Shown here: piece after piece, positions 38,755-58,432 of the stretch
Layout of the letters: every line of letters begins with the position of its first letter
How positions within the stretch are numbered: position 1 is the stretch's first letter
Source: Wickerhamiella versatilis
Lineage: Eukaryota
Assembly: GCA_030867685.1 (NCBI GenBank)
Contig: JAQOWU010000008.1
Coordinates: 4,030,001-4,094,000 of the forward strand
Length of the DNA: 64,000 nucleotides
Direction of reading: 5' to 3'
Translations under genes and position numbers: made by a program
Notes under the pieces: generated by a model
Databases searched by the model: none
The model's input: the letters and a program-made list of their open reading frames with translations, nothing else
Told to the model about the DNA's origin: nothing

Positions 38755-39678
38755 ATGACGAAATCATTGCTTGATCTGGTAGCCTCGGTTGACAGTTCTC
38801 CTTATGAGACTGACCGACGGATCTGGTATCTTGAGTCCCACGACGGCTTTTTGCTCGGTAAGGTTCCACCATATGTAGTCGAGAGGCTACCTGATGACCT
38901 ACCGATGATCCGAAAAGATGAACAGAGGAAAATGCTAACAGTATGCCAATTAGGAGGTGTGAGTGAACGGTCTGAAGCATTTGCAAAACTTTGTCAATAT
39001 TTCCGGTCTCAAAAGATATTTGTGTGCTGTGAAGGATGGAGAAATGAACTCTACGGCGTTTACACCCAGGGACACCAATTATATTTCACTATTGAGCGGT
39101 CTTGTGCTTGCCTTTTTGGCTTGACGACTTATGGAGTGCACATAACTGGATATGTGCCTGCAAACCGACCCGAAGACTATAAGATATGGGTCCCCCGACG
39201 ATCGTACACCAAACCCACTTGGCCAGGTATGTTGGACAATACAGTGGCAGGCGGTCTTGGCTACCCCGCAGGAATGTGGGATACTGCAATTAAAGAATGT
39301 GGTGAGGAAGCAGGATTGAGTAGCGATTACGTGCAGAATCATCTAAGGCAAGCAGGTGTTGTTACTTATGAATTTCAAAAGATAAATGACGTTTATTCGG
39401 AAGACAGCGTGTTTCAACCTGAAGTGGAATGTGTTTATGATCTTGTGATGAGTCCGGGTGTAGTTCCCAAACCAACAGATGGTGAGGTTCATAGCTTTGA
39501 ATTACTGAGCGTCCCTGAAGTTCGCGAGCTACTTGGTAAGGGTGAATTCAAATACAATTGCGCTTTAATTCTTATTGACTTTCTGATACGGCATGGAATT
39601 GTAAACTACGAGAATGAGCCTGACTACTTGCAAATTGTTTGCCGTAGCCACAGAAAGCTTGAATATCCTTTACTCTAG
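38755..39678 (+). CDS. Nudix hydrolase, YJR142W/Tnr3-like
   Basis: GWRNELY, FGLTTYGVH, WVPRRSYTKPTWPGMLDNTVAGG, KECGEEAG, FKYNCAL. Confidence 0.85.
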   Translation: MTKSLLDLVASVDSSPYETDRRIWYLESHDGFLLGKVPPYVVERLPDDLPMIRKDEQRKMLTVCQLGGVSERSEAFAKLCQYFRSQKIFVCCEGWRNELYGVYTQGHQLYFTIERSCACLFGLTTYGVHITGYVPANRPEDYKIWVPRRSYTKPTWPGMLDNTVAGGLGYPAGMWDTAIKECGEEAGLSSDYVQNHLRQAGVVTYEFQKINDVYSEDSVFQPEVECVYDLVMSPGVVPKPTDGEVHSFELLSVPEVRELLGKGEFKYNCALILIDFLIRHGIVNYENEPDYLQIVCRSHRKLEYPLL

Positions 39679-49743: not shown

Positions 49744-52700
49744 TTAAGTTTCGAGGGCCTGAAGACGCACGAGTTCAGCGTAACGGCCATTCAAGGACAT
49801 TAGTTTTGGATGGTTTCCTTGCTCAACGATACATCCATGTTCGAAGACATATATAATATCTGCTTTTTGAATAGTGGAGAGTCTATGTGCAATTGCAATT
49901 GTTGTGCGGCCGCGAGCTGCCTCATCCAAGGCCACTTGAACTACGCGCTCCGAATCACTATCAAGTGCTGAAGTCGCTTCATCCAACAATAATATTTTGG
50001 GGTTTCTGATCAGTGCGCGCGCAATGGCTACTCTCTGTTTTTGCCCGCCGCTCAAAAGACCTCCCTGAGAGCCCGACTCTGTATCATAACCATCAGGTAG
50101 ACCAGAGATAAAATCGTGTATATTTGCTTTGCGTGCAGCAATTTCAATCATTTGGTCAGTGACTTCACTTGGATCGCCCGGCCAACCCATTTGGATATTT
50201 TCCCTTAGAGTGCCGGAGTAGAGTGTGGGTTCTTGTTGCACCAGTGAAATAAAAGAGCGCAAAGTTTCAAGATTATAGTCCTCAATGTTGATTCCATCGA
50301 TTTGAATTTTGCCAAACTGTGGATTGTAGAATCTTTCCAAAAGGCCTATGGTGGTAGACTTGCCGCATCCCGACGGACCAACTAACGCGACATATTGTCC
50401 TTGTGTTATATGGAGATCTAGTCCGCGTAGAACAGGAACCTGTGGACGTGTTGGATATCTGAATTTCACATTATTAAAGTCAACATTTCCCTCTATTGTA
50501 CCTTCTTTCGGCCGGTATCCCTTATTATCCCAAACATCAATATTAGGTTTGGCACTAAAAATGCGATAGCAGGATTCCGCAGCCGCTTGTGCTTTTGTGA
50601 AATCGGGGGCATAGCTAAATATACGGCCCGCAGATTGGGCACCAAGAACAATGGACATAAATACTGTGTAGAAACCAATCAACGATGACTTACCCTCTCG
50701 CATACAGGTGGATCCCCACCAAAATACCAATGCCATGACCCACGGAATAAGCCCCTCTGCTAAGCCGAACATTACTGCTGAGCGGAGATTTGCCATATTA
50801 CTGCTTTGAACTTGTTTGTCAACCTCCAGTGCATATTTATCAACGACATCATCTTCACGAGTAAGACTCTGTACTGTGCGTACAGCAGAGGCATACTGAG
50901 ATGCTAGTGCTCCGCTATCTTCGTAAACCTTCCTTGCTCGTTCGTGTAAAGATCTTAAGACATGAATTCTGAAAAACCCACATCCCATAACAATAGGCAC
51001 AGTTGCCATTGCAACAAGACCAATACGCCAATTAAAGGGAATTCCTGTAACGATACCACCAATTAAAACAGTGAAACTTTGCAGTATTTGACCCAAGGTA
51101 GCGCCACCTAGACCATCTATTGCCTTAGCCTCTTTGGCAAGAATTGAAGTAAGAGCCCCCGGTGTATTTCCAGGAAAATCAAAAAAAGCCGTATCCAGAC
51201 GGAGTATTTGTCGAAATAAGCCTATCCTTATAGCTCTCACAAGTCGGTTCGACGCAGCGCTAAGTGATATACACATAGCTGCTGCGGAAAAGAGAGACAT
51301 CATTCCAATAAAAAAAAGCCATCCACTGTACACATTTATTGAATGTCTCATTTGTGTCCCCTTCTCTTCAATAATTGATTGGATAGAGAATGCGGCCACC
51401 ATTCCTAAAGATGGATAACAGTATCCTAATATTACTGCAGAAGCTGTGCCTCCACAAATTAACCAGATCTCGCTGCGATTCAGCGCCCATAGCATTTTCA
51501 GATACCTGAAAAGCCCTTTATTAACAGGAGATTCTATTCCAGGGATGATTTCGTGTGCAAAATCGATTTGCTCCTCTTCAACGTCCACTTTATCCTCTTT
51601 AATACTGAGTTCATTATTCGATGAGTTGCTCTCTATTTCTGCATCATCACCAAGCTCGGCTTTTATGCGCTGGGCTCTTACAAGATCCGAATAAGTACCT
51701 CCTGACGCCAATAATTCTGCATGTGTTCCCTGTTCTAAGATCTTCCCATGGGACATTACCACAATTTTGTGGGCATTCTTTATAGTAGAAAGTCTGTGGG
51801 CGATAACAATGGTCGTACGGTTGATTGCTGCTCGGTCAAGTGCCTCTTGAACTATTCCCTCGCTTTTAGTGTCTAGAGCCGAAGTTGCTTCATCAAGTAA
51901 AAGTATTGGTGGGTTTCCAACGATGGCGCGTGCAATAGCAATACGTTGCTTCTGTCCACCACTTAAGAGAAATCCTCTGTCACCAACATTCGTGTCTAGC
52001 TTTTCAGTGAGAGCCTGGACAAAATCCCAGGCATTCGCAAGTTTGCAAGCCTCTTCGACCCTCTGAATTTTAACTTCGGGAGACGAATTCTCATATTCAG
52101 TGCCAATTAATCCGTATGCAATATTATCAAAAATAGTTTCAGCAAAAAGAGTAGGCTCTTGAGGTACATAGCCTATACGTTGACGTAGCCATTTCACATC
52201 AAATTTCTCAATATCATGACCATCCAGGGTTATTGAACCACTCAATGGCAAGTAAAAGCGCTCAATCAGGCCGACAATTGTAGACTTACCTGATCCTGAC
52301 AAGCCTACCAGTGCTACAGTCTGACCTGCAGGAATATCAAGAGAAAAATCTGGCAAAACCATAACGCCAGGTCTTGAAGGATATTTGAATGTGACATCGC
52401 GTAGTTTGATTTCGCCTTTAACTTTCTCCAGTCTTATCCCATTTGTCGACCGGCTATTCACCACTGGAACGCGATCTATAGCCTCATTCAAACTTTTAGC
52501 TGCTGCCATTCCTTGAACAATGAACCTAATATTGGGGGCGCAATGACCCAACTGAAAACTTCCAATGAGCATAGACATTACGACGGTTATAACATGTCCG
52601 ATAGAAGTCTCGCCCCGAACAATTAGTCTGGAACCTTCCCACAAACCAAGTGCATACGTGTAAAAAAATGCAGCCCAAATACAGGCAAGCATGATACCTT

Positions 52701-53610
52701 GAGATACGCCTGCATAGTCGGCTTGCTTAACCACAGCCCCAAGATAACTATCGAATTTTTGAGCTATTCTGTCCTCCAGATTGAAGGCCACTGTGTTTCG
52801 AGACGAACTGAGTGCTTCTTCGGCAACAACTGAACCTCTTGCATAAATTTGATCGACTTTTATTTGTTTGCGTATCAGAAAATATGATCCCAGTACCATT
52901 GACATTACAACAAAGAACATACTTGGAAGAAGGATACAGGCCAATTTCCACTGACTGGCAAATGACACCACGAGAGCCGCCACAAAAGCCGCCACACCTT
53001 GCACAACATTACCCGACTTTTCTGAAACAGCTTCTTGGATGGAAGTTGTGTCATTCGTAATACGGGTGGTTATTTCCCCCGTCCCCAATTTGTCAAAGTA
53101 GGCTATGTTTTGGTGGATGACTGCACTCAAGTATGCCTTTCTATAGCGAGCTGCAAATAATTCTCCTCTGTTGACCAAGATTAAGTTCTCGATGAATGAT
53201 GCACCAATCATTGCGATCCCAATGTATACAAAATAAAGAGACTTGTGGTCAACATTGCTTTGAAACACCTGGCCAGCTCCCGCATTGCCGAAAAAGTCGT
53301 TAAAATTATTGACAATACCACCTACTACCAGGGTGAACATGGGATATGCCACACCATGGACAGCACCGCAGACCAAACCTACAATTACAAGAACGGTGTC
53401 CTGCACCGTTGCAAATCGATATAATGTAAATAAGGTGACTTTCTGCTTATCTACATGATTCTGTTGTCTCAAGAGTTCATTGCCATCTATTTCAGTTCCT
53501 GTGTAATTGACATGTTCTGCAAAATGGTTTTCAGAGGCCGAGGAGCTCGAGGAGGCCCCTTTCTGTTCCTTCATTACCAGATGAGTCATCAGTAAAGATA
53601 AGAATCTCAT
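49744..53610 (-). CDS. Full-size ABCB/MDR transporter (start may be the ATG at 53574)
   Basis: TMD-NBD-TMD-NBD with GLSGSGKST and GPSGCGKST; LSGGQKQR and LLLDEATSALD each occur twice. Confidence 0.95.
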   Translation of the reverse strand: MRFLSLLMTHLVMKEQKGASSSSSASENHFAEHVNYTGTEIDGNELLRQQNHVDKQKVTLFTLYRFATVQDTVLVIVGLVCGAVHGVAYPMFTLVVGGIVNNFNDFFGNAGAGQVFQSNVDHKSLYFVYIGIAMIGASFIENLILVNRGELFAARYRKAYLSAVIHQNIAYFDKLGTGEITTRITNDTTSIQEAVSEKSGNVVQGVAAFVAALVVSFASQWKLACILLPSMFFVVMSMVLGSYFLIRKQIKVDQIYARGSVVAEEALSSSRNTVAFNLEDRIAQKFDSYLGAVVKQADYAGVSQGIMLACIWAAFFYTYALGLWEGSRLIVRGETSIGHVITVVMSMLIGSFQLGHCAPNIRFIVQGMAAAKSLNEAIDRVPVVNSRSTNGIRLEKVKGEIKLRDVTFKYPSRPGVMVLPDFSLDIPAGQTVALVGLSGSGKSTIVGLIERFYLPLSGSITLDGHDIEKFDVKWLRQRIGYVPQEPTLFAETIFDNIAYGLIGTEYENSSPEVKIQRVEEACKLANAWDFVQALTEKLDTNVGDRGFLLSGGQKQRIAIARAIVGNPPILLLDEATSALDTKSEGIVQEALDRAAINRTTIVIAHRLSTIKNAHKIVVMSHGKILEQGTHAELLASGGTYSDLVRAQRIKAELGDDAEIESNSSNNELSIKEDKVDVEEEQIDFAHEIIPGIESPVNKGLFRYLKMLWALNRSEIWLICGGTASAVILGYCYPSLGMVAAFSIQSIIEEKGTQMRHSINVYSGWLFFIGMMSLFSAAAMCISLSAASNRLVRAIRIGLFRQILRLDTAFFDFPGNTPGALTSILAKEAKAIDGLGGATLGQILQSFTVLIGGIVTGIPFNWRIGLVAMATVPIVMGCGFFRIHVLRSLHERARKVYEDSGALASQYASAVRTVQSLTREDDVVDKYALEVDKQVQSSNMANLRSAVMFGLAEGLIPWVMALVFWWGSTCMREGKSSLIGFYTVFMSIVLGAQSAGRIFSYAPDFTKAQAAAESCYRIFSAKPNIDVWDNKGYRPKEGTIEGNVDFNNVKFRYPTRPQVPVLRGLDLHITQGQYVALVGPSGCGKSTTIGLLERFYNPQFGKIQIDGINIEDYNLETLRSFISLVQQEPTLYSGTLRENIQMGWPGDPSEVTDQMIEIAARKANIHDFISGLPDGYDTESGSQGGLLSGGQKQRVAIARALIRNPKILLLDEATSALDSDSERVVQVALDEAARGRTTIAIAHRLSTIQKADIIYVFEHGCIVEQGNHPKLMSLNGRYAELVRLQALET

Positions 53611-53809
53611 TAATTATTACCGTTGGGGTTGCGGTTATCTTTCTAATCTAAATTGGATTCCCAGAAGTGGTGCTAATGACGAATTCTTTTTAACTATAGG
53701 TACGAAGATGCATTGATTTATGCTTTTAATATATATAATAATAAAAAACTTCAAGTTTACTGGCACGATTTCTCGTGCAAGATTATTTGTTCAATGTATC
53801 AGAGTAGGT

Positions 53810-54604
53810 CTACTCTCTCCATAGGTCAAAAAAGTGGTGCACTGGACCATTTCCCTTTCCGATCTCGAGATATTTGGCTGCCTCAAGGGCCCCCGTAACA
53901 TAATCCTTTGCAGCACGCACAGCATCATCTAAAGGAAAGTTTCGGGCAAGATATGCCGCTAGTGCAGAAGACAGTGTACATCCAGTTCCGTGTGTATTTT
54001 TTGAATCAACGCGTTTGGATTTCAGTTCTTGGTAAGTTTTCGTATTTGCATTGTACCAAATGTCAACGATGTCACCAGGCAAGTGGCCTCCCTTGAGCAA
54101 AACCGAGGCACCGCCTGAGATTTCACTGAGTTCCAATGCCGCTTTCTGCAGAGCATTGATTTCGATCTTTCGCCCCAGAATAATCTCAGCTTCAGGAAAG
54201 TTTGGAGTTATGACTGTGGCTAACGGTAATAACCTTTCACGAAGAACAGAGATGGCGCTCTCCTCCAGCAGTCTTTGGCCCGAAGTAGATACCATGACAG
54301 GGTCGAGAATAATGTTAGGTAGACCTTGCACCTCCTGTCTTACAGCCTCAACGAGCTCAGCAGAATGCAGCATACCAATCTTTATAGCATCTGCACCAAT
54401 ATCATCGAGGCATGACCTTATCTGAGAACGCACGAACTCAACCGGTACTGGATGGATCCCGTAGACACCCTGCGTGTTTTCATCGACAAGAGCAACAATT
54501 GCACTTTGCCCGTAGACACCACAGGCAGAGAAAGCTTTTATATCAGCTTGAATTCCAGCACCCCCACTACAGTCACTACCAGCAATTGTAAGAGCCTTAC
54601 GCAT
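53810..54604 (-). CDS. thiD: Stand-alone HMP/HMP-P kinase, bacterial type
   Basis: LTIAGSDCSGGAGIQADIK, IKIGML, DPVMVSTSG, ITPN, LLKGGH, NTHGTGCTLSS, GPVHHF. No TenA domain. Confidence 0.93.
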   Translation of the reverse strand: MRKALTIAGSDCSGGAGIQADIKAFSACGVYGQSAIVALVDENTQGVYGIHPVPVEFVRSQIRSCLDDIGADAIKIGMLHSAELVEAVRQEVQGLPNIILDPVMVSTSGQRLLEESAISVLRERLLPLATVITPNFPEAEIILGRKIEINALQKAALELSEISGGASVLLKGGHLPGDIVDIWYNANTKTYQELKSKRVDSKNTHGTGCTLSSALAAYLARNFPLDDAVRAAKDYVTGALEAAKYLEIGKGNGPVHHFFDLWRE

Positions 54605-54631
54605 GTCAATGTTAGTCCCCTGAAAGTTAAG

Positions 54632-54678
54632 TTACCCGCTCCCGATTTTCCGAGTCCAAACGAAGTCCACCCTAACCC
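54632..54678. promoter_or_regulatory. Reb1-like TTACCCG (54632-54638) and Tbf1/telobox-like ACCCTAACCC (54669-54678) in the thiM-thiE/thiD spacer
   Basis: Exact motifs are seen; their function is inferred. Confidence 0.4.
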
Positions 54679-54711
54679 ATGATAGTCTATTTCTTCTAAA
54701 TATTCATCCAT

Positions 54712-56106
54712 TTAGTCCTTAAGAAGTAGTCTAGAAGCAAGTGCGGGATCATCAGCCATGGTAATGGCTGTGACAACTGCAATACCGTCAACACACTGCT
54801 TCCTTACTGCCGATGCACGGTCCACAGATATACCACCAATAGCAACCTTTAAATGGTTCGACGATCTACAGAGCTCATTGAGCTTGTCCAGACCTAGCTC
54901 GGACTTAGCATCCTTTTTTGTAGCTGTCGAATAAACAGGTCCAACGCCCAGATAGTCCACATCTAAATTTTTCGAGTCATGAACTTCCTTCAAATTTGTA
55001 GTGCTCAGTCCAATGATCTTTGATGGCCCCAGAAGCTTTCTTGCAACAGGCACAGGTAAGTCTGATTGACCGATATGGACCCCAGCCGCATTGACAGCAA
55101 GTGCAATGTCAACGCGGTCATTGATGAGCAAAGGAATGTCATATTCGTCACATACCTTTTTGACAGCTTGCGCTCTAGACAGGAAATCCCCACTATCACA
55201 GTTTTTTTCGCGAAGCTGAACTACAGTGACACCACCTTTCACTGCTGCCGACACAATTTCAGGTGTAGTTCGACCTAAATTAAGATTTGGATCGGTGACA
55301 AGATAAAGTGATAGATCAATAGGCGGTCTTGCCCGCGATTCAAACTCCGAGAAAGTCATTCTATAAAGTTCGTCCAGTAGATTTTGATGCATAGACCCAG
55401 TTCCTTTCGCACTGAGAGCAGCTATTTCACCAGCGACTCCGTAGTAAGTCAAACAATAACAGGCAGCCCAAAATGGGTCTGGCGTAGTCGCAGCAAACGC
55501 CCCTAAAATACACGTCAGTGTACATCCAGATGCAGTGATTCCGCCCATAAGTGGATGACCGTTCACCACTCTTGCAGTTCGCCGGCCATCTGTGACGAAG
55601 TCTATGGGACCGCTTATGACCACAACGGTATTGTGTGCTGCAGCCAGCTTTTTAGCATCAATCAAGACGGTCTCGGTTGACATAGTGCTATCAATGCCAC
55701 GCGAATGAGCATCTACTCCACACAATGTCGCGATTTCTGAGGCATTCCCTCTAATGATTGTGGGCTTGAGAGCTATGAGTGTTTTACAAGCGTCTTGTCG
55801 CATTTTTGTCGCGCCAACGCCAACTGGATCAAGAACCCACGGCTTGCTCTGTTCACTAGCTTTTCGTGCCGAGTTTTGCATTGCCTCTAGTGTAGCATCA
55901 TTCAGAGTACCTATGTTAATCGTTAGAGCATTAGCAATACTGGTGAGACTGGCACTCTCCCTAGGCTCGCTACCCATCATTGGTGATGCTCCTACTGCTA
56001 TAAGTCCATTGGCCGCAAAATTTGAAGCGACTTTATTCGTAATATTGTGAACAAGAGGCGTTTGTTTCCGTACACGCCCTACAGCCTTCCAAATAGCCGT
56101 GCTCAT
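54712..56106 (-). CDS. thiM-thiE: ThiM-ThiE fusion: hydroxyethylthiazole kinase + thiamine-phosphate synthase
   Basis: ThiM motifs PLVHNITN, GASPMM, INIGTL, LDPVGVGA, IRGNASEI, ITASGC. ThiE motifs LSLYLVTD, VQLREK, INDRVDIA, GVHIGQSD, GPVYSTATK, AIGGI. Confidence 0.93.
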   Translation of the reverse strand: MSTAIWKAVGRVRKQTPLVHNITNKVASNFAANGLIAVGASPMMGSEPRESASLTSIANALTINIGTLNDATLEAMQNSARKASEQSKPWVLDPVGVGATKMRQDACKTLIALKPTIIRGNASEIATLCGVDAHSRGIDSTMSTETVLIDAKKLAAAHNTVVVISGPIDFVTDGRRTARVVNGHPLMGGITASGCTLTCILGAFAATTPDPFWAACYCLTYYGVAGEIAALSAKGTGSMHQNLLDELYRMTFSEFESRARPPIDLSLYLVTDPNLNLGRTTPEIVSAAVKGGVTVVQLREKNCDSGDFLSRAQAVKKVCDEYDIPLLINDRVDIALAVNAAGVHIGQSDLPVPVARKLLGPSKIIGLSTTNLKEVHDSKNLDVDYLGVGPVYSTATKKDAKSELGLDKLNELCRSSNHLKVAIGGISVDRASAVRKQCVDGIAVVTAITMADDPALASRLLLKD

Positions 56107-56119
56107 GTGAAATAACTAA

Positions 56120-56164
56120 TCACGTGACTATTATTATTATTGTTATTATTATTATTATTATTAT
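56120..56164. promoter_or_regulatory. Cbf1-type E-box TCACGTGA followed by a (TAT)n microsatellite upstream of thiM-thiE
   Basis: TCACGTGA at 56120-56127, then about 12 near-perfect TAT units. Confidence 0.45.
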
Positions 56165-56381
56165 CCTGTAAGCTGATTAATAGTGAAACTATGGTTTCTT
56201 GAATGAGAATAACTTCGTATTTTCGACCTACTTGGTCGAGCACGAAAGAATAGGCTAACACTGGATTCAATAAACCAATCTCGTAAGCATATCCGAACTT
56301 ATATCTAAGATGATTGCAAGGGTATTTCAACCCAATTGCCGATACACGTGCGTTACTCATCTTGTTGATTCCGTCTCAGAC

Positions 56382-56891
56382 ATGGATCCAGTGCTCAATA
56401 TCTTAGGCTGTGAGATGGCTATGAATGAACAATCTGGGCAAAACAGCGATCACCCTGAATTAAATATATTCCAGGAGTTAGGTGAAGAGCTACCAAGCAA
56501 TGTCGTGGGTAGTAGTAGCGGTGGTGGTATCGCTACGCAGATAGCTCCGCTGATATTGGCATTGAGCTCGTGTAGAGCGCGTGGAGGGCTCGGCAACCAG
56601 CATTCTCCACTCAATACTGTTCAGTGTCAACAAAGCGAGCATCCAAGACTGAAGTTGACCCGTTTACGAGGACAACTTCACTCTGTAAGACGACAAATAG
56701 CTCAGCTAGTGAGTCGCAGCAGTGGGCTTAATGACCGTCAACTGGCACGCTTTGTTAGCCTATTGAGTCAATCACTGGATCTTGAGGCTCAGCTTCGGAA
56801 AACGGCAGTTGCCATCCGTGGCCGAAGTGGCCATTCTTCAGTGCCTTGCAATGTCCGCAGAAAGCGTCGCCAATTACGCCGAAGACTTTGA
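56382..56891 (+). CDS. Orphan hypothetical protein with Leu-rich helical segment and basic NLS-like tail (alternative ATG at 56310)
   Basis: ORF in an otherwise empty gap, ending RRKRRQLRRRL. No family recognised. Confidence 0.4.
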   Translation: MDPVLNILGCEMAMNEQSGQNSDHPELNIFQELGEELPSNVVGSSSGGGIATQIAPLILALSSCRARGGLGNQHSPLNTVQCQQSEHPRLKLTRLRGQLHSVRRQIAQLVSRSSGLNDRQLARFVSLLSQSLDLEAQLRKTAVAIRGRSGHSSVPCNVRRKRRQLRRRL

Positions 56892-57205
56892 TAATTTTTC
56901 ATTATCATGAGACTTTTGTTTATTTATTGCAAGGTGGCTCTTATGTTTGACAATGTGAGTCTATTCATATGTGGGCCCGGCCGCTTGAATTACCAATTCA
57001 GATACCAATAACACTCACCATTGGCAGGATAGCCTACTCTGAATCCAACTTAGTGAGCATTAGCCTTGAGAACATCGGCTTTCAAAATTCTTAGAACAAT
57101 ACATAGGCCGGAAATACACAAATATACCTTCTTCTTATCTTAGAGTATGCTAATTTCTATGGGCTGATCTTCCAACAACGACGCTAGCAGAATCGTCATC
57201 ATTGG

Positions 57206-58432
57206 TTACTCTGCGATTATGACAGATGCCGCACCCATTCCAGTACCTATGCACATCGACGTTACGCCAACTTTCTTCCCAGTACGATGCAACTCAGTAA
57301 GAAGCGTGGATACCTGGCGGGCTCCTGTGGCACCCAGCGGATGGCCCAAGGCAATTGCTCCGCCTTTCGGATTGACTTTTGCCATATCTATGCCAACTTT
57401 ACGAATAGAGTAGAGGGCCTGGCTCGCGAAAGCTTCATTGATCTCGAAAATATCTACATCACTCAAATTCAGCCCAGTATCTTTAAGGACGGCTGGAATT
57501 GCCACGGCAGGGCCAATACCCATGATTTCAGGAGGGACACCGCAAGTTCTGCAGTGCACAAACTTTCCAATAATCGGCAACCCGTGTTTGAGCGCAAAAG
57601 AGCGGCGAGCAAGAATAACTGAACCAGCGCCATCAGAGACCTGAGAAGCATTACCGGCTGTGGTAGCACCATCTTCCCTAAATGCAGGGCGCAATTTGCT
57701 GAGGGATTGTGGGGTCACACCCTTACGAATACCCTCATCCTGGGAAATCAAAACCATCTTGTCATTGTCATCCAGGGCTTCGATAGGTAGGATCTCTTCT
57801 TCGAAAAGTCCAGTCTTTTGTGCCTGTTCTGCCTTACGGAATGATTCTGCTGCAAAAGCATCCTGGTCTTGACGGGTGACATGGAATTCCTTTGCCACAT
57901 TCTCACTTGTGATACCCATTGGAATAAGGCAAGCGGAACCAATTTTTAATTCTGCAAAACTAGCCGGGAATGTAGAGATGTCTGTGGCGCTATTCGACAT
58001 TGATTCAACACCAGCACCAATACCGATATCAATTTGACCAGCAAGAATCTGAGTTGCAATATTGTTTACCGCCATAAGTCCACTTGAGCACTGGCGATTC
58101 ACCGCCTGAAATGGCACTGTATTGGGAATACCAGCAACAAGTTCTGCCGCACGATGCTCAACAGCACCGGCCCCAGGATTCGAAACATTTCCGACAACAA
58201 CGTCCCCTAGAACAGATGGATCAATACCAACCTTCTTTATCTGTGCCTCAAGAAGGCGCGCCAGAATCTCAGCTGAAGCCGTGTTGCGAAAACCACCCTT
58301 TCTAGCCTTGACAATAGGAGTTCGGTGAGCAGCGACAATTACCACATCATCAGGGTTTTTTGTTAGAATACTGTCAAGGGAACTGGCACTATTCAAGGTA
58401 AGTTGAGAACTAAGATTTTCTAGCCGTTGCAT
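57206..58432 (-). CDS. POT1: Peroxisomal 3-ketoacyl-CoA thiolase
   Basis: PTS2 RLENLSSQL after the ATG at 58432, NRQCSSGL, NEAFA, GHPLGATG, SMCIGTGMG. Confidence 0.94.
   Translation of the reverse strand: MQRLENLSSQLTLNSASSLDSILTKNPDDVVIVAAHRTPIVKARKGGFRNTASAEILARLLEAQIKKVGIDPSVLGDVVVGNVSNPGAGAVEHRAAELVAGIPNTVPFQAVNRQCSSGLMAVNNIATQILAGQIDIGIGAGVESMSNSATDISTFPASFAELKIGSACLIPMGITSENVAKEFHVTRQDQDAFAAESFRKAEQAQKTGLFEEEILPIEALDDNDKMVLISQDEGIRKGVTPQSLSKLRPAFREDGATTAGNASQVSDGAGSVILARRSFALKHGLPIIGKFVHCRTCGVPPEIMGIGPAVAIPAVLKDTGLNLSDVDIFEINEAFASQALYSIRKVGIDMAKVNPKGGAIALGHPLGATGARQVSTLLTELHRTGKKVGVTSMCIGTGMGAASVIIAE

Follow-up and report, generated by a model that had tools for sequence, protein, structure and literature searches.

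A thiamine-salvage gene pair, very probably descended from a bacterial operon, is expressed as two transcription units in a yeast chromosome

Transfers of operons to eukaryotes are rare, and those that occurred are natural experiments on how bacterial genes are made expressible in a nucleus. Two adjacent genes in a 64-kb stretch of a yeast chromosome (contig JAQOWU010000008.1; the whole stretch of 64,000 nucleotides is called the window below) raise this question, since an initial annotation, made from the sequence alone, took them for a thiamine-salvage operon transferred from bacteria. Are the genes of bacterial descent, and do they still work as an operon? The proposed descent stood: bacterial ancestry is supported by the placement of ThiD within Bacteroidia and by scores against protein structures. 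As to the second question, thiD has capped start sites of its own and the pair is no longer a working operon. We consider it very probable that both genes originated in bacteria and were domesticated, that they descend from a Bacteroidia-type thi operon, that they provide the core of thiamine salvage and that they are expressed in a eukaryotic manner.

Both genes lie on the minus strand. The first, thiM-thiE (54712–56106), is a 464-aa open reading frame (ORF) encoding an N-terminal hydroxyethylthiazole (HET) kinase and a C-terminal thiamine-phosphate synthase. It is followed, after a spacer of 107 bp (54605–54711, minus strand, 42% GC), by thiD (53810–54604), a 264-aa ORF in a different reading frame, encoding a kinase of hydroxymethylpyrimidine (HMP) and of its phosphate (HMP-P). 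Both are expressed, and neither has an intron: no intron joints were found at either gene in the reads of X21 and X24, the two raw-read runs that constitute the RNA evidence (X24 is a polyA run). Together with the exact ORF coordinates, this bears out the original description of two co-oriented, intronless genes 107 bp apart.

In Pfam, the 464-aa protein matched PF02110 (residues 11–251, E = 5.8e-81, profile positions 3–245 of 247) and PF02581 (residues 267–448, E = 6.8e-62, profile positions 1–180 of 180), and the sole domain of the 264-aa protein was PF08543 (residues 11–256, E = 6.9e-86, profile positions 1–246 of 246). All four NCBIfam equivalogs scored above their curated cut-offs: NF006830 (304.3 vs 180) and TIGR00694 (273.2 vs 256.4) for ThiM, TIGR00693 (220.2 vs 145.1) for ThiE and TIGR00097 (311.3 vs 204.95) for ThiD. 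The window fusion (as P0001, the first sequence of the 24-sequence alignment A1) carries all columns invariant across this alignment. These include G194-C195 in the ThiM part, where C195 is the presumed active-site cysteine, as in the B. subtilis ThiK structure, and, in the ThiE part, Q297, R299, K301, D330, H344, S368, T394, T396, K397 and G424-G425. Strain variants were seen at two positions: T>G at 56032, seen in 4/4 runs compared, changes K25 of ThiM-ThiE to N, the window strain being the odd one, and C>A at 54442 in the metagenome run X10 changes V55 of ThiD to F. The logic of the salvage pathway is established for these families. Judging from family membership, ThiM would phosphorylate the thiazole alcohol HET to HET-P, ThiD would phosphorylate HMP twice to HMP-PP, and ThiE would join HET-P and HMP-PP into thiamine monophosphate, from which a host phosphatase and thiamine pyrophosphokinase would then produce the cofactor thiamine pyrophosphate (TPP).

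Where did the genes come from? Among the best 120 of 7999 ThiD matches, a sister species stood at 77% identity and another 118 at 58–65%, the remainder being the window's own protein. Names among the 120 matches listed (Alistipes, Muribaculaceae, Tannerella twice, Bacteroidetes bacterium and Bacteroides ihuae) are all of Bacteroidota, besides a truncated 'Candidatus'; the best representative in an exhaustive library of 50% clusters was 59% identical. Against the PDB, ThiD scored 156 bits with yeast Thi20 and 207–262 bits with seven bacterial or reconstructed ancestral ThiD chains (262 for 7r8y). In a FastTree of 327 rows and in quick IQ-TREEs of 123 and 82 rows, the window ThiD and that of the sister species (98–99) fell within Bacteroidia. 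In the 123-row tree the pair (98) lay inside a 43-row clade (97) with all named rows from Bacteroidota, and in the 82-row tree it belonged to an 11-row clade with Muribaculaceae- and Alistipes-named rows, which was nested in a 22-row Bacteroidia clade (both 99 by the Shimodaira–Hasegawa-like approximate likelihood-ratio test, SH-aLRT). The likeness of ThiD to Bacteroidota proteins, which the initial annotation had proposed for two peptide segments (ALVDENTQGV and a second one), was therefore confirmed by the trees and by the named close matches, and both segments are found in the translation.

The sister row of the window ThiD in the trees was P0242, a TenA-ThiD fusion on a contig of 1,972 bp. 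Among the matches of its ThiD domain in the compared set, the yeast pair ranked 1 and 3 (58% and 56%). This domain is only 57–59% identical to any Bacteroidota ThiD, and Bacteroidota ThiDs are 70–100% identical to their own nearest relatives. P0242 may be another yeast's gene; if so, it would fit an ancestral thiM-thiE-tenA-thiD operon from which tenA was later lost in the window lineage. No TenA-like sequence or tenA relic was found anywhere in the 64-kb window at E<1. A donor with a triple fusion (ThiM-ThiE-ThiD) found no support, as ThiD domains of such proteins are 52–59% identical to that of the window, vs 60–65% for stand-alone ThiD.

The fusion protein has relatives of the same kind in other yeasts. 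Eleven yeast-type fusions (P0001 of the window, that of the sister species, and P0003–P0011) formed one clade in every tree; this 11-row clade had a support of 99 for the ThiE half, 100 for the ThiM half and 85–92 in FastTree. P0007, which is named Starmerella bacillaris and is 52% identical to the window fusion, belonged to the clade in three trees. The event that fused ThiM with ThiE is older than the split of the eleven, since fused thiM-thiE is common to all of them; it may have taken place in the donor or in a yeast ancestor. In the ThiE tree a group of 47 rows (87) enclosed the yeast clade; those of its rows that bear names are Bacteroidota and one Calditrichota. The stem of the yeast clade measured 0.71 for ThiM and 0.34 for ThiE, and for ThiD about 0.25–0.33 plus 0.22. 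A scan of JGI metagenomes with a yeast-only alignment returned 80 loci, 0 of them yeast-like, the best being 52% identical over a partial match.

A number of points qualify the descent from Bacteroidia. In the free quick tree of the ThiM half, the yeast clade stood beside Proteobacteria and Gilliamella (89). A tree constrained to place the yeasts with 19 Bacteroidia rows was 32.35 log-likelihood (lnL) units above that free tree, with p = 0.874 in the approximately unbiased (AU) test, and the free placement was thus an artefact of the search or of long branches. The concatenated tree of the three domains did not resolve the yeast pair, which stood beside long Bacillota branches (50); there the Bacteroidia constraint was 10.45 lnL units lower, and p = 0.301 in the AU test merely fails to reject it. 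The maximum-likelihood trees were quick IQ-TREE searches with SH-aLRT as their only support, and the window fusion was represented in them (row win_ME) by P0001, which differs from the window translation by K25N. The case for a non-fungal origin is made by architecture and PDB scores, as the trees contained no fungal Thi6 or Thi20 sequence. With the three domains taken separately, as had been suggested at the outset, ThiD and ThiE fall in Bacteroidota groups, and ThiM is compatible with them by the AU test.

Two Gilliamella loci (L009 and L010) share the order thiM-thiE-thiD, their genes lying 44–78 nt apart, at identities of only 41–47%. Neither was the donor in any tree. A separate observation concerns P0035, a 782-aa ThiM-ThiE-ThiD triple fusion from EukProt, which lay within Bacteroidia, apart from the yeasts, in the ThiD, ThiM, ThiE and concatenated trees. 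It apparently represents, to judge by these placements, a separate transfer of the same operon from bacteria to a eukaryote.

Is the arrangement of the two genes that of a bacterial operon? Our bacterial comparison set held 80 named loci, 70 with thiM and thiE and 45 with thiD as well. In 63 of the 70, thiM and thiE were adjacent separate ORFs, 20 of these pairs being in the same frame with the stop codon alone between them; the genes were fused in 3 loci and otherwise arranged in 4. The order thiM-thiE-thiD with a gap of no more than 250 nt was found in 22 of the 45 loci, thiD lay upstream in 7, and an extra gene stood between thiE and thiD in 16. This gene was tenA in 10 of the 16, all of them Bacteroidota. 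Fusion variants in Bacteroidales comprised ThiM-ThiE-ThiD, ThiM-ThiE-TenA, ThiE-ThiD, ThiE-TenA-ThiD and TenA-ThiD. The source of the window genes would have been a Bacteroidia-type operon, thiM-thiE-(tenA)-thiD, of which order and orientation were retained.

All three domains may have arrived together, or ThiM-ThiE may be old and common with Starmerella while ThiD is a later arrival. Its donor would then have been a member of Bacteroidales like Muribaculaceae or Rikenellaceae, and a second operon might, for instance, have replaced a portion of the one acquired before. We regard such a layered origin as unlikely. It would account for the identities to Bacteroidota, which are 42–47% for ThiM-ThiE and 57–59.5% for ThiD, so that ThiD is nearer by 11.5 to 15 points, about 3 SD (standard deviations) beyond the norm of bacterial pairs at comparable divergence (1.9±4.2), while within the yeast pair both genes are equally diverged (79% and 77%). 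This excess, however, is carried mainly by the fast ThiM half (stem 0.71), since ThiE and ThiD differ by only about 0–7 points in their identity to the same Bacteroidia loci. A later arrival would also agree with the scarcity of relatives: among the 120 best matches and 150 representatives, P0122 of the sister species was the only known yeast ThiD near the window, the other candidate being P0242. That scarcity may nonetheless be an artefact of the listing. Also in favour of a layered origin, a review counts at least two independent operon transfers (PMC12461148). Against it, thiD lies 107 bp downstream of thiM-thiE in exact bacterial operon order and orientation, and all three domains are compatible with Bacteroidia. 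A single co-transfer of the three domains, with which the data are compatible, thus appears likelier than a layered origin.

A more speculative proposal, to which we give odds well below even, is that the locus is the remnant of a four-gene Bacteroidales operon that was resolved differently across yeast lineages, or else that thiD is a later replacement, of Muribaculaceae- or Rikenellaceae-like kind, placed on an older thiM-thiE. As a remnant, the locus would record a lineage in which thiM and thiE were joined and tenA was lost, a promoter arising in the scar of 107 bp, and another fast-evolving lineage, that of P0242, would have retained a TenA-ThiD fusion. If the remnant or the replacement reading were true, the clade would offer a dated, stepwise series of operon-to-gene conversions.

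Do the genes still work as an operon? RNA reads at the locus numbered 5033 in X24 (4859 at least 99% alike) and 4769 in X21 (4499 at least 99% alike). With the two orientations summed, depth was 175–212 (X24) and 171–233 (X21) over thiD, and 25–73 and 39–90 over thiM-thiE, a 2–5-fold excess of thiD. The same runs gave about 3 and about 5–9 over the neighbouring ABC (ATP-binding cassette) gene, 82–135 and 261–423 over the thiolase gene on the other side, and 3 and 1 in the bin upstream of thiM-thiE (56118–56318). In X24, 5′ ends bearing the template-switch oligo were found inside the spacer at 54661 (17 reads), 54628 (18 reads) and 54621 (13 reads), so that they precede the ATG of thiD by 57, 24 and 17 nt; a genomic GGG, the sign of an artefact, was absent upstream of all three. 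The skew in read orientation flips over the spacer, from 12.8 vs 91.7 in bin 54510–54710 to 49.6 vs 23 in bin 54711–54911, which marks the right edge of a thiD unit and the left edge of a thiM-thiE unit, so that the 3′ end of the thiM-thiE mRNA probably lies in the spacer too. At the other end of thiD, X24 reads start in clusters at 53715 (31 reads) and 53731 (46 reads), which places transcript 3′ ends at about these positions, and below 53705 the depth falls to about 2–7 in both runs (orientations summed). By these pile-ups and by its sequence, 53715–53809 (minus strand) is the thiD 3′ untranslated region, an AT-rich 3′-end region of yeast type.

A working operon would instead make one bicistronic mRNA from which ThiD is translated by reinitiation or internal entry. 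The co-orientation of the genes and the mere 107 bp between them invite this idea, and the depth in the 200-bp bin that covers the spacer speaks against a clean separation: it is above zero, and in X21 the depth beside 54636–54641 (26–32) is about that of the thiM-thiE body, so read-through bicistronic transcripts are possible. The 48 template-switch-oligo reads at three spacer 5′ ends without upstream genomic GGG, the 2–5-fold depth of thiD and the edges marked by the orientation skew nevertheless argue for separate units, and ATG triplets early in the spacer would impede reinitiation. We therefore hold a working operon to be quite improbable. As capped thiD transcripts begin within the spacer, the locus consists of two yeast transcription units, an operon by descent but not in its working, with some read-through possible.

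Features of bacterial expression were sought at the locus as well. The TPP riboswitch (RF00059) had no match there in an Rfam scan at E≤1, and matches to bacterial promoters (9 vs 5.0±2.4) and terminators (3 vs 2.2±1.5) were at chance level. The conversion of the operon would have had four sides: thiM and thiE came to lie in one ORF, giving both enzymes from a single capped mRNA; thiD gained start sites in the 107-bp spacer and a 3′ end of its own; the bacterial riboswitch was lost; and codon usage became host-like.

Are the genes truly part of the yeast chromosome? They are flanked by a gene for an ABC/MDR (multidrug resistance) transporter (49744–53610, minus strand) and by a thiolase gene (57206–58432, minus strand). 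Further genes of the window encode, among others, a CHY zinc finger protein, an NTE1-type lipase, calnexin, MRPL47, Urb2, a MutL homologue, Mak16 and an RFC subunit; the flanking proteins are eukaryotic across the 64 kb, as expected from the earlier remark that the pair is set among ordinary yeast genes. In independent assemblies, contigs of 23–35 kb cross both host junctions, contrary to the refuting condition that had been set for them. In assembly X1 (study P1), the junction of the ABC gene with thiD lies on a contig of 22,981 bp, and another of 34,015 bp leads from thiD across thiM-thiE into the thiolase gene; in X10, the ABC gene, thiD and thiM-thiE share one contig (35,038 bp). Contigs break at the locus only within thiD (X1) and at an (AAT)n repeat (X10). 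The X1 break, at 53952–54415, consists of short overlapping records with a depth of 18.7–42 vs 15.6 and resembles a bubble in the assembly, which allelic variation or a second copy may have caused. At least 95% of sampled words from a 6-kb stretch over both junctions were present in 17 runs of 9 studies; these are isolate runs of one organism, to which X21 and X24 also belong, and metagenomes of food fermentation, food and sediment, with no RNA run among those listed. A flag marks 13 of them as runs from which the window itself may derive; study P1 does not bear it. The contigs of isolate runs sum to about 10–11 Mb.

The genes also resemble their host in composition. GC content along the locus (0.40–0.49) is not distinct from that of the flanks. 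It is 46.7% for thiM-thiE and 47.3% for thiD, vs 46.6±2.8% for 29 host ORFs of the window, and at third codon positions 38% and 40% vs 41.9±4.9%. Relative synonymous codon usage correlates with that of host genes at 0.68 and 0.55, and host genes correlate among themselves at 0.57±0.16. Contamination or misassembly, by which a bacterial fragment would have ended up in a yeast contig, could draw on the bacterial similarity of the proteins and on the X1 break in thiD; the junction contigs, the presence in 17 runs of 9 studies and the host-like composition and codon usage rule against it, as do the polyA+ capped transcripts, the chance level of bacterial promoter and terminator matches and a nearest bacterial protein that is just 50–65% identical, and we reject it as having next to no chance of being right. 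Equally negligible is vertical descent from rearranged native Thi6 and Thi20: C. glabrata Thi6 is the fusion's top single PDB match by total score (229.5 bits over two stretches), but the single bacterial chains for ThiM (187 bits) and for ThiE (128 bits) jointly exceed it, the domain order is reversed, and ThiD, nested in Bacteroidia and devoid of a TenA domain, scores 156 bits with Thi20 vs up to 262 with bacterial chains.

What is the host? Its NTE1 protein has Sugiyamaella (56%) and Trichomonascus (54%) as best named relatives, and by this affinity of a single protein the host is a Dipodascales yeast. It likely lies in the Wickerhamiella/Starmerella clade, to which the lack of any Wickerhamiella or Starmerella name among the 120 NTE1 matches listed is a counterargument. 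The sister species is 79% identical in ThiM-ThiE, 77% in ThiD and 87% in NTE1. For each of these three proteins (P0002, P0122 and P0392) the longest contig measures 132,240 bp; that they share one contig is the simplest reading, and the sister species appears to have both thi genes beside the same NTE1 gene.

Several other features were seen around the pair. Upstream of thiM-thiE, an AT-rich divergent promoter region (56107–56354, 33% GC, assigned to neither strand) separates it from an unannotated, expressed transcript on the plus strand (56355–57127), which lies between thiM-thiE and the thiolase gene and diverges from the former, so that about 250 bp of AT-rich promoter region are common to both. 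Its depth in X24 is about 70–125, the template-switch oligo marks 5′ ends of it at 56355 (21 reads) and 56364 (8 reads), and its first in-frame ATG (56382) opens a 169-aa ORF that runs to 56891 and has no Pfam match. The promoter region contains the (AAT)n microsatellite at about 56122–56171, directly upstream of the thiM-thiE ATG, where the X10 assembly breaks and which was passed over in the placement of reads, and is flanked by CACGTG motifs at 56121 and 56345. Within the 3′ part of the thiolase ORF, 39 template-switch-oligo reads mark a minus-strand 5′ end at 57281; transcription may start here within the gene, or the end may be an artefact. On the other side of the locus, 31 nt past the thiD stop, a palindrome with a 6-bp stem (53763–53778) precedes a T-rich run of the coding strand. 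This might be left over from a bacterial terminator, but the region has no more such matches than expected by chance (3 vs 2.2±1.5). A protein with DUF4743 and NUDIX domains is encoded about 15 kb from the THI genes (38755–39678, plus strand). Its architecture would be that of yeast YJR142W and plant NUDT20/24, Nudix enzymes tied to damaged thiamin diphosphate.

The locus thus represents a clear end state in the conversion of an operon: a fused ORF stands in for two cistrons, a new promoter and start sites lie within 107 bp, the riboswitch is gone and codon usage is fully ameliorated to that of the host. As publications exist both on the phenomenon and on this clade of yeasts, its value is in confirmation and in detail at the level of the locus. 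Modest additions are the spacer start sites of thiD, the affinity of its product to Bacteroidales and the question of tenA.

How does the locus compare with known systems? Bacterial THI6/THI20 clusters in the Wickerhamiella/Starmerella clade were reportedly described by Goncalves and Goncalves in 2019 (PNAS 116:22219). According to published accounts, the ancestor of this clade lost THI5, THI6 and THI20 (and THI4 in some species), and bacterial homologues of THI6 and THI20 were regained, chiefly in Starmerella, by two or more operon transfers (PMC12461148, PMC13376923, PMC7212421). The window locus is a member of these published transfers and known in kind, since its fusion groups with ten other yeast-type fusions including that of Starmerella bacillaris; the initial annotation was right that the phenomenon is not new in these yeasts. 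Like the THI clusters, as these accounts describe them, it is a cluster within a yeast chromosome that consists of THI6 and THI20 homologues from bacteria and rebuilds the salvage route, and its host has Dipodascales affinity; a difference is that none of the 120 listed NTE1 relatives of the host bears a Wickerhamiella or Starmerella name.

With the thi operons of Bacteroidia (thiM-thiE-tenA-thiD) the window shares gene order and orientation, its ThiD nests among theirs, and its ThiE and ThiM are compatible with such a source. It differs from them in having neither tenA nor a TPP riboswitch, in its eukaryotic type of transcription, in identities of only 42–65% and in the fusion of thiM with thiE, found in just 3 of the 70 named bacterial loci. 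The native fungal enzymes Thi6 and Thi20/21 cover the same three activities (which are predicted here), and Thi6 also pairs ThiE and ThiM in one polypeptide. Neither of their architectures is present at the locus, as had been noted from the beginning: Thi6 has the order ThiE-ThiM and the window ThiM-ThiE, with residues 261–460 aligning to residues 6–224 of C. glabrata Thi6 (3nl2), and in contrast to Thi20 and Thi21 (ThiD-TenA) the window ThiD stands alone, without TenA, and is far closer to bacterial ThiD. Kominek et al. in 2019 are said to have described an enterobactin operon in yeasts of the Wickerhamiella/Starmerella clade as a bacterial operon turned into a eukaryotic gene cluster. Compared by description, that system differs from the thiamine-salvage pair in its pathway, in its Enterobacteriaceae donor and in its larger number of genes.

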